From Pseudomonadota bacterium (lineage in GTDB: Archaea > Thermoplasmatota > SW-10-69-26 > JACQPN01 > JAJPHT01), in assembly GCA_021325135.1 (NCBI GenBank), contig JAJPHT010000002.1, positions 1-23,716 on the forward strand: a stretch of 23,716 bases of DNA. Reading direction: 5' to 3'. Below, piece after piece: positions 15,033 through 19,772 of this stretch; position 1 is the stretch's first letter; every line of letters starts with the position of its first letter. The notes under the pieces were generated by a model, which was given only the letters and a program-made list of their open reading frames with translations, searched no databases and was not told where the DNA came from. Both the position numbers and the translations under genes were made by a program.

Positions 15033-15452
15033 TCAGGAGCCGGCGGCCTCGAACTCGCGCTCCTCCCACATGTCGTAGGCCATCCCAATGGCGGCGGCCT
15101 CCGCGAGCACGCCCACGGCGAAGAAGACGTGGGCCACCAGGAGAGTGCCCCACACCGTGACGCCCGCGACGAGGACGCGGCCGGCGCCCACGTCGAAGAA
15201 GAGGAGCAGCCCCAGCGCGGCCGCGGCGGCTGCAAGCTGGATCGTCGATCGAGCGGTGCGCTTCACGCGGCCGGGCGCGCTGGTCGCCGCGATCTGGCGG
15301 CTGTTCGCGACGGCGAGCCCGACGAGGACGACGCCCAGCGCGAGGTGGAGGAGGCGCAGCCACATGGGCGCCCCGCGGAACGCGCCCAGGAGGAACTCGG
15401 CCACGACGAGCCACGTCATCCAGTAGAGCATCTTCCAGGGGGAGGAGGGCAC
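15033..15452 (-). CDS. 4-TM membrane protein
   Basis: Four hydrophobic segments, two with His (LLHLALG, VAHVFF), ending AYDMWEEREF. Start GTG 15452 or ATG 15479. Confidence 0.8.
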   Translation of the reverse strand: MPSSPWKMLYWMTWLVVAEFLLGAFRGAPMWLRLLHLALGVVLVGLAVANSRQIAATSAPGRVKRTARSTIQLAAAAAALGLLLFFDVGAGRVLVAGVTVWGTLLVAHVFFAVGVLAEAAAIGMAYDMWEEREFEAAGS

Positions 15453-15825
15453 GGCGACCCGACCCGCGCTGGCGTGCATGAACGCGTCGCTCGGCGCGCG
15501 CCACCCCTCACAGAGGCACGTGCGCCCAGTCTTGGGCGTAGACCGCGTCGCCCACCAGTTGCGGGCAGGGGCCATCGACCTCGCCCACGACGCCTCACCG
15601 AGGATCGACCCTGCGAGGGCATCGAACCCGTCGGTGGGGGCCTCGGTTCCTGTTCTAACGCGAGCCTTACGGATTGCACCGCCCTCATCCGCTCGTGCGG
15701 GCCCCCCCTCTCGTGTGATCAGACGACGGGTATTCCTCAGGAGGAACGAAATTCACAACACATCTCAACTCCTCCGACAGAAACTCTGAATCGTTTGCCG
15801 GTGTTCGCTGGCCGGGATCTAAGAA

Positions 15826-18153
15826 ATGAACCGACCGGGGGCCATCTTCATCGGAACCACCAGCCTCGAATTGGCCGACTTGGTCGTCGCGCTCGCGCGT
15901 GGTTTGCGTGTGGGCCGCGAGGAGGTAATCCTTGGCTTTGAGCACGAAGGCGCCAGCATAGAGGATCTGCGTCGGGTCATGCGCGGCGCGCGCCTCTTCC
16001 TTTTCCTTGAGGACGAATCTCCCAACCCTCGCGCGCGGGTCGAAATGGAGATTGCACGAGAACTTCCTGGCACACACATCCGCTTCATACCCCCTTCGCC
16101 AATCACTTACTGGTCTGCTCCGCGGGACGTGGCGGTCTGGGGCTCGCCACGCGGGCTCGCCCAGACGCTCTTGAACGTCCTCTCTGAGCACGATTTCATG
16201 CACGAGCCCGTCCACGAGCTGCTGGATCGGGTCATGGAGCGGAACCATTTTCCCCCGTTTCCCATGGCTGAGGCGCCGCCCCCACGGGCGGAGGGTCCCA
16301 CGGAGGAGGAGGCGATGGCAGGCTTGGGCGCGTTCATGGATGAGCCGGGCGCCGCCGCAGCGCCTCCGCCCGGAGCGGAGCGGTTTGTCAACGTCGCGTT
16401 CGCCGCGCCAGGCGCCTCCCAGTCGTTCGCCGCGTCGCGGTCCCTTGCGCACGACGGCGACTACGTGCTCCGCGTCGCCATCGGCACGCAGCCGCGCGAG
16501 ACCATCGTGCGGGACGCCCCCGCGCACGGCTTCGACGCGGGCCTCCTCCCGGCCGGAGGCGCGTGGCTCGACGTCGTCGTCGCGAGCGAGGATCTCTCCA
16601 TCCCCCACCGCAAGCACGCCATGTTCCTTCCTGACGAGGGGGACGCGTGGGCGTGCTCCTGCCGCCCCGGGAGCGCGCCGCACACGTGCGACCCGGGCTC
16701 GCGCGCGCACGCCATCGACATTCCCGTGCGCACGCCGCGCGAGGGGAACGAGGCGCGGCTCCGCCTCGTTGTCTATTGCATGAACAATGTCGTGCAGTCG
16801 CAGCGCGTGCGCGCGCGCCTCGCCCCCGAGGAGCGCGACGAGGAGGACGCCCTCGAGTCAGTCGTGGACTACACGCTGACGCGCTCGCTGCGGGACGCGC
16901 CACGCCTCGCGCCCGCCGCCGCGGGCATCATGACGAACGACGAGGGAGGCGTCCACCGCATCGTCCTCAACGCGGGGGGCGACGAGGACGCCCTCGTGTG
17001 GCACTTCGGAGACAACTACGTCGACGGCCAGCTCAAGGACGCGCGCTACCAGCTCGCGGTCGTCGCGGCAAAGAACCCACGCGACGACCCCGAGAAGTGG
17101 GACTCGCGCGGGGACATGGCGGGCGGAAGGCCCCTCTCTGAGTTCGCGGCGGACGTGCGCAACCTCGCGCGCTTCGGCGCGAAGGCATGGCAGGCGCTCG
17201 CGAGCACGGAAGCGTCCCAGCGCGTCCAAGCGCTCGCGCGCCTGCGCCGCGAGGGCGGCACGCCCCTGCACATCGCGCGCGCGGAGGACACGGGGCCTGC
17301 CTTCCCGTGGGCGCTCGTGTACGACATCCCCCTCTACGCGGACGAGTCGCGCTGGCGCGACTGCGACATCATGCAAGACGCCACGAGACTCGCGGACGCC
17401 TCTCGCGCGACGTGTCCGCTGGGGCCGCACAAAGAGGACGTCATCTGCCCGTACGGCTTCTGGGGCGTGCGGTTCGACCTCGCGAACCCCGCCTCGTCCA
17501 AGGACCGGGATGCGGAGCCGCTCGTGCGCGCCCCGGCCTCGGGTGCGCTCCTCCTTACGGCCCTCAACGCGACCATCGCCACCGCGGGGCTCCACGGGCA
17601 GGCCCTCGCGCGCATCAACCCCACCCGGTTCGTCGTGAGCGACCGCCCCACGCGGGAGGGCATCCGCGCGGCTCTCGCGGACGCGAACCTTGCCATCCTC
17701 TACTTCTTCTGCCACGGACGGAATGTGCTCAACTCGTCCGCGAAGCCCACGCTCACGCTCGTGCTCGGCGCGAAGGACACGCTCGACCCGGGGGACGTCA
17801 TCAACTGGTTCGCGGACGAGGACGCGGCCGCCGCGGTGGCGAACTGGCGCGAGCGCCGCCCGCTCGTCTTCATCAACGGGTGCAGCACCGTGCGCGTCAC
17901 GCCCGACTCGAAGCCGAACTTCGTGGACGTCTTCTCGCAGGTCTCGGCCAGCGGCATCGTTGGGACGGAGATCCCGGTCATGCCGGGCTTCGCCGAGGAG
18001 TCGGGGCGCGTCTTCCTCGAGGCGTTCGAGAGCAGCCAGACCGTCGGCACGGCCTTGCGACGTGTGCGCCACGCGGCCTTCGCGCGCGGGAACGTCCTGG
18101 GGCTCGCGTACACCGCCTATGCGCCCGCGGGCCTTCGGCTAGAGGAGGAGTGA
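15826..18153 (+). CDS. TIR/DUF4062-like + beta-sandwich + CHAT (caspase-fold) protease
   Basis: C-terminal ILYFFCHG (His630) and LVFINGCS (Cys686), plus FPWALVYD, CPYGFWG, GIVGTE and LGLAYTAY. N-terminal IFIGTT...LFLFL...VEMEIARE Rossmann-like pattern. The CHAT call is confident; the TIR call is tentative. Confidence 0.85.
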   Translation: MNRPGAIFIGTTSLELADLVVALARGLRVGREEVILGFEHEGASIEDLRRVMRGARLFLFLEDESPNPRARVEMEIARELPGTHIRFIPPSPITYWSAPRDVAVWGSPRGLAQTLLNVLSEHDFMHEPVHELLDRVMERNHFPPFPMAEAPPPRAEGPTEEEAMAGLGAFMDEPGAAAAPPPGAERFVNVAFAAPGASQSFAASRSLAHDGDYVLRVAIGTQPRETIVRDAPAHGFDAGLLPAGGAWLDVVVASEDLSIPHRKHAMFLPDEGDAWACSCRPGSAPHTCDPGSRAHAIDIPVRTPREGNEARLRLVVYCMNNVVQSQRVRARLAPEERDEEDALESVVDYTLTRSLRDAPRLAPAAAGIMTNDEGGVHRIVLNAGGDEDALVWHFGDNYVDGQLKDARYQLAVVAAKNPRDDPEKWDSRGDMAGGRPLSEFAADVRNLARFGAKAWQALASTEASQRVQALARLRREGGTPLHIARAEDTGPAFPWALVYDIPLYADESRWRDCDIMQDATRLADASRATCPLGPHKEDVICPYGFWGVRFDLANPASSKDRDAEPLVRAPASGALLLTALNATIATAGLHGQALARINPTRFVVSDRPTREGIRAALADANLAILYFFCHGRNVLNSSAKPTLTLVLGAKDTLDPGDVINWFADEDAAAAVANWRERRPLVFINGCSTVRVTPDSKPNFVDVFSQVSASGIVGTEIPVMPGFAEESGRVFLEAFESSQTVGTALRRVRHAAFARGNVLGLAYTAYAPAGLRLEEE

Positions 18154-18157
18154 GATC

Positions 18158-18574
18158 ATGGCCGACGCGACGCCACTTGGCACCGTCCTCGCCCTCGGGA
18201 ACGACGCGCTCGCGATCGCCGGCGCGCTCTCGTTCGGCGTCCTCCTTGGTTGGGTGACGCACCGGACGGTGCGCCGGCAGAAGGCCGCGCCCACTCTCGC
18301 GGACGTGGGGACCGTCGCGACGACGCTCCTGGGCGCCGCCATCACGGCCGTCTTCCAATCGCCTGGGCTCTTTGGCGCCTACGGCATCGGGCTGGCCATC
18401 GGCTTCTTCTGGTACCTCCGCCACGCGGAGAAGCGCGAGACCGCGTGGAAGAAGGCAGCGCAGGCGGCCATCGACGCGGGAAAGCCATTGCCCGTCGACG
18501 CGCCCGAAAGTATCAACGTCGACCTTTGGATGAACCAGGCGCCCACGCAGCGTGGGCCGACGCCGCCCCCGTGA
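18158..18574 (+). CDS. Small ~3-TM membrane protein coupled to the CHAT protease gene
   Basis: ATG 4 nt after the CHAT stop with a GAGGAGTGA SD. Hydrophobic segments ALAIAGALSFGVLLGWV, VGTVATTLLGAAITAVF and LFGAYGIGLAIGFFWYL, then a ~50-aa soluble tail. Confidence 0.85.
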   Translation: MADATPLGTVLALGNDALAIAGALSFGVLLGWVTHRTVRRQKAAPTLADVGTVATTLLGAAITAVFQSPGLFGAYGIGLAIGFFWYLRHAEKRETAWKKAAQAAIDAGKPLPVDAPESINVDLWMNQAPTQRGPTPPP

Positions 18575-18824: not shown

Positions 18825-19772
18825 TCACAGGATGATGTCGATGTCCAGCTTCTCCGCCAGCTCCTTGTAGCGGTTGCGGATGGTGACCTCGGTCACGCCG
18901 GCGACGTCGGCCACCTCGCGCTGCGTCCTGCGCTCGCCGCAGAGGATGCTGCTGATGTAGAGCGCCGCCGCGGCGACGCCCGTCGGGCCGCGCCCGCTCG
19001 TGAGCTCCTTGTCCGCGGCCTGCTTGAGGATCTCCACGGCCTTGGCCTGGATCTCGCCGCTGAGCTTCAGCTCGGAGCAGAAGCGGGGGATGTAGTCGAT
19101 GGGGCTCGTGGGCATGAGCTTCAGCTTCAGCTCACGCGCGATGAAGCGGTACGTGCGGCCGATCTCCTTGCGGCTGACGCGGGAGGCGTCGGCGATCTCG
19201 TCGAGCGTGCGGGGCACGTTGCACTGGCGGCAGGCGGCGTACAGGCTCGCGGCCGCGACGCCTTCGATGCTGCGGCCGCGGATGAGGTTCTTCTGCACGG
19301 CGCGGCGGTAGACCATGGCGGCCGTCTCACGCACGTTGCGGGGAAGACCCATCCTGGACGCCATGCGGTCCAGCTCGCTGAGGGCGAAGGCGAGGTTGCG
19401 CTCCGTGGCGTTGCTGACGCGGATGCGGCGCTGCCACTTGCGGAGGCGATACAGCTGGGCGCGGGACTTGGTGGGGATGTTCTTGCCGTAGGAGTCCTTG
19501 TTGCGCCACCCGATCTCCGTGGAGAGACCCTTGTCGTGGATCGTGTAGGTCATGGGGGCGCCGACGCGGGCGCGCTTCTCGCGCTGCTCGTGGTCGAAGG
19601 CGCGCCACTCGGGGCCCTGGTCGATGAAGTGCTCGTCGAGGACGAGGCCGCAGGATTGGCACACCAGCTCGCCGCGTTCGTAGTCGCGGGCGATCTGCTT
19701 CGACCCGCACTCGGGGCACTGGGTGATCTCTTCGACCTGCTCGTCGGCGTTCTTCTTGTCTTGGGGCGGCAT
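18825..19772 (-). CDS. tfb: Transcription initiation factor IIB
   Basis: Zn ribbon CPECG...[36 protein letters not shown] and [13 protein letters not shown]. Confidence 0.98.

Follow-up and report, generated by a model that had tools for sequence, protein, structure and literature searches.

The window, the whole of a 23.7-kb archaeal contig (JAJPHT010000002.1; 23,716 nucleotides) from a metagenome-assembled genome (MAG) of the Thermoplasmatota (3.77 Mb, 94% complete, 70–77% GC), carries on its forward strand two adjoining genes whose products are a predicted cysteine protease of the separase/CHAT type (P0001, 775 amino acids) and a small transmembrane (TM) protein (P0002, 138 amino acids). 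The pair is one copy of a module that occurs mainly in bacteria and in soil metagenomes, and also in some archaea. It had first been picked out from the letters of the window as a candidate archaeal defence or cell-death operon; this original prediction was right that the pair is real, whereas the architecture is not unique to this archaeon. The module is accessory and patchy, the linkage of protease and partner holds across phyla, and gene order tracks protease phylogeny. With a probability of about 0.42, we read it as a self-contained, horizontally spread conflict-type unit, serving cell death or defence, in which a protease would gate a membrane effector. The support for this reading is the protease fold and catalytic dyad, the reciprocal linkage of the two genes, a second locus of identical layout, the tree of protease cores, the patchy distribution, the shuffling of N-terminal domains, the conservation of the TM helices and the precedent of the EACC1 and Pepco systems.

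Two surveys run in opposite directions carry the linkage. Relatives of P0002 occur in 124 species genomes from at least 10 phyla, including methanogens and Thermoplasmatota, and the protease core was sought in the fetched flanks of 80 species-representative loci drawn from these. It was present in 62 of the 80, with the TM gene followed by the protease gene on the same strand in 53, the protease gene followed by the TM gene on the same strand (the order of the window) in four, including the Thermoplasmatota locus L016, and the two genes convergent in five; ten loci had full flanks and no core. The reverse survey covered the 80 metagenome loci closest to P0001, and a TM gene was found in 66 of them, directly downstream on the same strand in 45, downstream and convergent in 12 and upstream in nine, while five loci with adequate flanks on both sides had none. 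The pairing of a CHAT protease with this TM protein, on which the original prediction was built, is therefore reciprocal. One locus (L103) repeats the exact layout of the window, with the same N-terminal domain on the protease, the same 4-nt intergenic gap and a partner that is 42% identical, tail included; in L016 the genes are either 6 nt apart or overlapping.

De novo clustering of the open reading frames (ORFs) flanking the 80 genomic loci recovered one further conserved gene, coding for a small TM protein of 85–100 amino acids with a G.GLVWGWLLG motif, which is a distant paralogue of the partner and lies just upstream of it. BLAST clustering placed this gene in 36 of the 80 loci; matches of hidden Markov models (HMMs) to ORFs raise the figure to as many as 64, which is an upper bound because these matches were unchecked against the position of the TM gene. 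Apart from the TM genes, no conserved neighbour was found in the 80 loci. In the window, a search for the small TM protein returned only a weak match to P0002 itself, and the protein was present in none of 66 type-B metagenome loci. The module thus comes in two forms, a three-gene bacterial type A (small TM, TM, protease) and a two-gene type B (protease, TM), to which the window belongs. A FastTree phylogeny of 118 cores splits the three-gene from the two-gene clade with a support of 100 and places the window as sister to L103, in a group that also includes the Thermoplasmatota locus L016 and a Rubrivirga locus (L011). Type A is also carried by methanogens, namely Methanothrix or other Methanotrichaceae (L019, L022, L026) and Methanosarcina or other Methanosarcinales (L052, L061), and the Methanothrix copies are nested among bacterial type-A copies in the same tree, which indicates transfer between the domains. 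Within type B the window copy is divergent, with an extra N-terminal domain and a longer tail. As a separate observation, both TM genes are present at the methanogen locus L061, with no protease within 7 kb.

The protease gene spans 15826–18153 on the forward strand, stop codon included, and the ORF, its coordinates and the intact caspase-type dyad are as originally predicted. The dyad lies in the motifs YFFCHG (residues 626–631; His630, 17713–17715) and FINGCS (residues 682–687; Cys686, 17881–17883), and both residues are invariant in a 93-sequence alignment of homologues; they also line up with the HG and NxC motifs of the SAVED-CHAT protein 8tl0. The match to the Pfam CHAT family (PF12770) stays below threshold, at 18.8 bits against a gathering score of 24 (E 1.2e-3; 20.5 bits in the genome scan), and NCBIfam and PADLOC scans of the protease returned no family. 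P0001 is thus a divergent CHAT branch that is poorly captured by the Pfam model, and its caspase fold, which had been proposed from the motifs, is supported by structure prediction rather than by Pfam. The AlphaFold2 (AF2) model built with the 93-sequence alignment has a predicted TM-score (pTM) of 0.76 and a core whose predicted local distance difference test (pLDDT) values mostly exceed 90, and the best structural match of this core is separase. Structure comparison recovered the caspase–hemoglobinase fold and, ahead of it, a pseudo-protease domain like those of separase and Csx29. From the fold and the invariant dyad together, it follows that P0001 is a separase/CHAT-type protease with an intact His-Cys pair; the protein has no predicted membrane segment and is, by these models, a cytoplasmic cysteine protease of predicted activity.

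An exhaustive phmmer search, counted as cluster representatives, gave 2472 matches to P0001 at E ≤ 1e-3 and 443 at E ≤ 1e-30, and all of these cover residues ~180–775, behind N-terminal extensions of 0–892 amino acids. The family therefore has a constant core of ~590 residues, made up of a beta-rich domain, a pseudo-protease part and an active caspase-like domain and including two Cys/His clusters, behind a lineage-variable N-terminus. In the window, the beta-rich domain (residues 186–395; 16381–17010) is modelled as all-beta with pLDDT above 90 and contains the cluster C277, C279, H286 and C288 (16654–16689). The helical and pseudo-protease part (residues 396–562; 17011–17511) aligns with the regions preceding the active domain in separase (its SPD) and in Csx29, and contains C513, C530, H535 and C541 (17362–17448), ahead of a CPxGFWG motif (cluster and motif together 17362–17466). 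The active caspase-like domain follows at residues 563–775 (17512–18150). Across the 93 sequences, C513, C530 and C541 are invariant and H535 and C279 nearly so, and the family consensus shows a CxC...HxC pattern. The two clusters are probably structural zinc sites, and we know of no description of such paired Cys/His sites in CHAT or separase domains.

The partner gene (18158–18574, forward strand) is coupled to the protease gene as the original prediction had it, in that the protease stop codon (TGA, 18151–18153) is followed by GATC and then by the partner ATG at 18158, and a Shine–Dalgarno-like GGAGG (18144–18148) lies within the 3′ end of the protease gene, 9 nt ahead of that ATG. Codon-position GC is consistent with coding in both genes, with a third-position value (GC3) of 0.93 in the protease core and 0.89 in the TM gene. 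The expectation of about three TM helices in P0002 was also borne out. Hydropathy gives two clear segments, at about residues 10–35 (with TM1 placed at ~15–35) and at about 47–68 (TM2 at ~47–67), separated by a basic loop (36–46), and the Gly- and aromatic-rich stretch at ~70–88 aligns with the glycine-zipper TM3 of the family; the tail occupies residues 89–138. The 64 homologues that were detected, of ~130 amino acids, are all without a Pfam family or a name, the ESM Atlas neighbours of P0002 are unnamed clusters only, and a Pfam search of P0002 at E ≤ 1 returned no family beyond chance transporter matches and no gasdermin match. In the family alignment, mean column identity is 56% across phyla; G22, A23, F26, G27, G31, W32, R39, K42 and D49 are invariant and the TM3 sequence LFGAYGIGLA.GFF is almost so. 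Judged from these sequences, the TM helices are conserved far beyond the need of an anchor.

By the positive-inside rule, the basic character of the loop that follows TM1 and of the first part of the tail predicts an N-out, C-in topology, so that loop and tail would lie on the cytoplasmic side and face the protease. The two subtypes differ in what follows TM3. Type-B partners have a median length of 98 amino acids and tails of about 10–25 residues, and of 60 such partners 15 carry WMG and 12 carry WLG, frequently right at the C-terminus; 24 of 40 sequences with an aromatic–hydrophobic–Gly match after TM3 end 0–4 residues past it, a count that includes some matches possibly inside TM3. In type A, 70 of 81 partners have [WFY]F[LI]DGR, and the variable stretch after it has a median length of 34 residues. 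P0002 itself has Trp124-Met125 (18527–18532), which family comparison identifies as its form of the W-M/L-G motif, then 13 residues, and it shares its longer tail only with P0218. By sequence comparison, then, the tail of ~50 amino acids is specific to this lineage and the family shares only the short motif. The idea that the protease clips the tail to release a membrane-damaging effector consequently does not generalise, given type-B tails of ~10–25 residues with the motif near the C-terminus. The short motif and the conserved loop are likely the recognition elements, which may be either cut or only bound. A protein of the same TM family in a betaproteobacterial MAG (L012, 6959–7780) carries an additional ~130 helical-looking residues at its C-terminus and has no protease core within 7 kb, and may be a stand-alone or rewired membrane component.

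In front of the core, P0001 has an N-terminal alpha/beta domain (residues 1–124; 15826–16197) and a Pro/Ala/Glu-rich linker (residues 125–185; 16198–16380) of low pLDDT and without regular structure in the AF2 model. The former had been called TIR-like, and this part of the original prediction divides: the domain is real and conserved in P0069, whereas its TIR identity is no more than a lead. Among the best 150 homologues, only the closest, P0069, covers residues 1–100. The two proteins are 41% identical in the core and 27% in the N-terminus, where E73, M74, A77 and R78 are conserved, and their local alignment scores 61 against 27.7 ± 4.8 for shuffled sequences, a value reached by none of 2000 shuffles. 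The ESM Atlas contains the 775-residue form, and its neighbours for residues 1–124 are TIR_2, ThsB_TIR and DUF4062 clusters (features 0.90–0.92; structure TM by query 0.66–0.74). Other approaches recovered no such relationship. Pfam at E ≤ 10 returned no family for residues 1–135 of either P0001 or P0069, hhalign of the N-terminal profile against the true TIR_2 N-terminus of P0183 was insignificant (probability 0.4%), a profile search with the two known domains found no homologues, and none of 66 metagenome N-terminal extensions resembles that of the window. A single-sequence AF2 model of residues 1–140 was poor (pLDDT 55), and Foldseek gave only weak, unrelated alpha/beta folds. Glu73 (16042–16044) is conserved in both known copies, and its match to the TIR catalytic glutamate comes from an insignificant alignment. 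The likeness to TIR and DUF4062 is thus a lead from the ESM Atlas matches; true TIR_2 fusions are present in two other family members.

A question independent of the mechanism is where translation starts. The database gene call P0003 (651 amino acids) begins at Met125, which would leave residues 1–124 out of the protein and dissolve any fusion of a TIR-like domain to a caspase-type protease. GC3 of 15826–16197 is only 0.72 against 0.93 in the core and also lies below that of neighbouring genes, and we estimate a chance expectation of ~4% for a 124-codon open frame at this GC. We regard the Met125 start as improbable all the same, given the significantly similar N-terminus at the same position in P0069, whose DNA has normal coding periodicity, the low, coding-like second-position GC (GC2) of the region (0.47), the ATG at 15826 one codon after an in-frame TAA, and the coherent alpha/beta fold of the 775-residue form in the ESM Atlas. 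The domain is real and probably translated. The homologous domain in L103 shows no GC3 dip, which suggests that in this lineage the domain may be a later, fairly recent graft or may reflect relaxed codon adaptation.

The distribution of the module is uneven at every scale. After removal of false matches to RND transporters, the true module is present in two of 401 sampled genomes of the phylum, and a search of 40 relatives, among them four congeneric genomes, did not recover the protease. Its carriers include Chloroflexota, Methanothrix, Methanosarcina, Saprospiraceae and Actinomycetota. Eight further matches to the TM family within one family of the phylum were rejected as false positives, each being a single frame of ~1100 codons; the only one of the eight that was inspected (L100, 3037–6339, in genome G184) encodes a long multi-pass protein that reads as an RND/MMPL-type exporter, and no protease core was found near the transporter-type matches at L100 or L102. 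The TM-family profile cross-matches helices in transporter-like frames of small Thermoplasmatota genomes (E 1e-7 to 1e-9), which calls for caution with counts made from HMMs only. The N-terminal domains are equally varied. Among 67 extensions there were LRR (seven), HEAT (three), TIR_2, TPR, S8 subtilase/kumamolisin and ABC_tran (two each), and caspase C14, EAD8, HSP70 and response-regulator receiver domains (one each). Such shuffling of N-terminal domains is typical of conflict systems.

By analogy with EACC1, Pepco and gasdermin modules, signalling and killing could proceed as follows. The variable N-terminal domain, TIR/DUF4062-like here and LRR, HEAT, TPR or EAD8 elsewhere, would receive or generate a trigger; the activated protease would then act on the cytoplasmic face of the membrane partner, with the conserved loop and the W-M/L-G motif of the tail as points of recognition; and the partner, activated either by cleavage or by release of a docked state, would form an assembly that conducts ions or damages the membrane and so brings the cell to a halt. 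Several results weigh against a conflict-type role of this kind. Around 37 loci, most of the 127 neighbouring genes have metabolic or housekeeping functions and there is no defence-island signal, so that the expected enrichment in defence islands was not seen, and PADLOC and Pfam searches of these flanking proteins gave scattered generic matches (ABC-type ATPases, WYL, subtilase) without any defence gene that recurs. A scan of viral contigs for the TM family found no copy, and P0001 and P0002 were unmatched at E ≤ 1 in PADLOC-DB v2.0.0, a 2023 release that does not cover later systems. An integral multi-pass partner is unlike the soluble or single-helix pro-toxins of known protease–effector modules; removal of an inhibitory tail is unlikely in many type-B partners because the tail motif lies 0–4 residues from the C-terminus; and the TM protein is under strong purifying selection, with which a role outside immunity would agree as well. 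Taking context and shuffling together, the module looks like an isolated mobile cassette with conflict-type domain shuffling and without a defence-island signature.

Two other readings compete with a protease-gated effector. The membrane protein could instead be a sensor or dock that tethers the protease through its loop and its C-terminal W-M/L-G peptide, possibly as a pseudosubstrate, so that membrane disturbance would release or activate the protease and the killer would be the protease, the N-terminal domain (a TIR-like NADase here) or both. A tail motif that often stands at the very C-terminus suits docking better than cleavage, and the best structural match of the core, separase, is itself regulated by a pseudosubstrate, being held by securin in that manner. 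Some of the N-terminal fusions (TIR_2, caspase C14, subtilase) are enzymes, not sensors. However, most are of the repeat type and sensor-like (LRR, HEAT, TPR), and this makes the membrane proteins the one candidate effector that does not vary; and the similar sensor role proposed for EACC1 by Kaur et al. (PMC7159879, section 33) has since been replaced by a substrate/pore mechanism (PMC12642450). We consider the sensor or dock somewhat unlikely, though a serious contender. Clearly less probable is regulated proteolysis outside any conflict, in development, envelope stress signalling or protein quality control of filamentous or aggregating microbes, comparable with the CHAT protease HetF in cyanobacteria. 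Housekeeping neighbourhoods without a defence-island signal, the very high conservation of the TM proteins and the filamentous or aggregating habit of many carriers (Chloroflexota, Methanothrix, Methanosarcina, Saprospiraceae, Actinomycetota) would all agree with such a role, whereas the extreme patchiness, the transfer between domains and the N-terminal shuffling, including EAD8 and TIR_2, mark accessory conflict systems rather than core physiology.

Among known systems the nearest is the membrane-associated two-gene system of EACC1 and a caspase (PMC7159879, section 33), for which cleavage-activated pores, as for Pepco, were described in a 2025 preprint (PMC12642450). The two resemble each other in that a gene of the caspase superfamily with variable fusions lies beside one for a small membrane component, which is strongly conserved and has a Gly-rich helix, and in a patchy distribution that leans to multicellular-type bacteria; the HSP70 fusion in one family member here also parallels the EACC1–DnaK fusions reported by Evans et al. 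The defining features nevertheless speak against membership. EACC1 combines a single TM helix with alpha+beta extensions and is cleaved into an inhibitory fragment of 5.7 kDa and a toxic one of 7.1 kDa (PMC12642450), whereas the P0002 family has three TM helices and no such extensions. The protease here combines a constant C-terminal core with a variable N-terminus, whereas the caspase of EACC1 System 4 is N-terminal with a variable C-terminus, and type A adds a second small TM protein.

Other protease systems are more distant. Separase and the CRISPR CHAT proteases (Csx29/TPR-CHAT of Craspase; SAVED-CHAT) have ~10–15% sequence identity to the core, which has a beta-rich domain of its own and two Cys/His clusters, and no Cas7-11 (gRAMP), Csx30/Csx31/RpoE, SAVED or CRISPR genes were found nearby in the window, which sets the pair apart from Craspase. 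Bacterial gasdermin operons likewise place a protease gene beside a membrane-acting partner and follow a logic of protease-gated membrane damage, but gasdermin carries a cleavable C-terminal inhibitory peptide, whereas P0002 is an integral three-helix protein. Type IV Thoeris (Rousset et al. 2025, preprint 10.1101/2024.10.24.620036) also combines a TIR-type domain with a caspase-type protease; there, however, ThsB and the caspase-like ThsE are separate proteins linked by N7-cADPR, without a membrane partner, whereas the domain here is fused in cis, is TIR-like only as a lead and is known in just two family members. The pair belongs to none of the gasdermin, Craspase and type IV Thoeris systems. 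DdvA (PMC11506125; PDB 8rot), an anti-sigma factor that includes a CHAT domain, is one single protein that spans the membrane and has an ECF sigma factor as its counterpart, and unlike in that system no sigma factor is linked to the pair. Our literature search found no description of the partner TM family or of the protease–partner pair, and the pair lies outside PADLOC, NCBIfam and Pfam families, in keeping with the original statement that it matches no named system. It is a tentative and on balance doubtful proposition that the module represents an immune or cell-death system spread across domains, so far undescribed and different in mechanism from EACC1, Pepco and gasdermin, in which a separase-like CHAT protease is joined to a dedicated glycine-zipper three-helix membrane protein (with a paralogous second one in type A) acting as a protease-gated channel or membrane-integrity sensor. 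If it were true, the window copy would be the first archaeal case in which a TIR-type domain, whether it consumes NAD or signals, is fused in cis to a caspase-type protease.

Protease-gated membrane killers such as gasdermins, EACC1 and Pepco tie prokaryotic immunity to animal cell death. To these the present module would add a fourth type of partner without sequence relationship to the others, namely an integral multi-pass membrane protein, and would offer a tractable test of the control of separase-like proteases at the membrane. Defining its two proteins would name two large families of 'hypothetical' proteins. Among the carriers, Paractinoplanes, Actinocrispum, Rubrivirga, Agrococcus and Methanosarcina are in culture, which makes function directly testable.

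In its immediate surroundings, the pair is flanked by two genes on the minus strand, a hypothetical membrane protein of 180 amino acids (15033–15575) and tfb (18825–19772; TFIIB E 1e-52). The original prediction was correct in placing the pair on the strand opposite to both flanks and mistaken in placing it downstream of tfb, with which it is convergent, tail to tail. The ORF at 15033–15575, of at most 180 amino acids, points away from the protease gene, matches no Pfam family and is hydrophobic over its C-terminal two-thirds; its true start may be further in, because a long N-terminal part looks non-coding. It was rejected as a member of the module, having a counterpart in none of the related loci. 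The protease is single-copy in the genome. The wider neighbours in the window are the hypothetical membrane protein, an aldo-keto reductase, a methyltransferase, ArsR and TFB.

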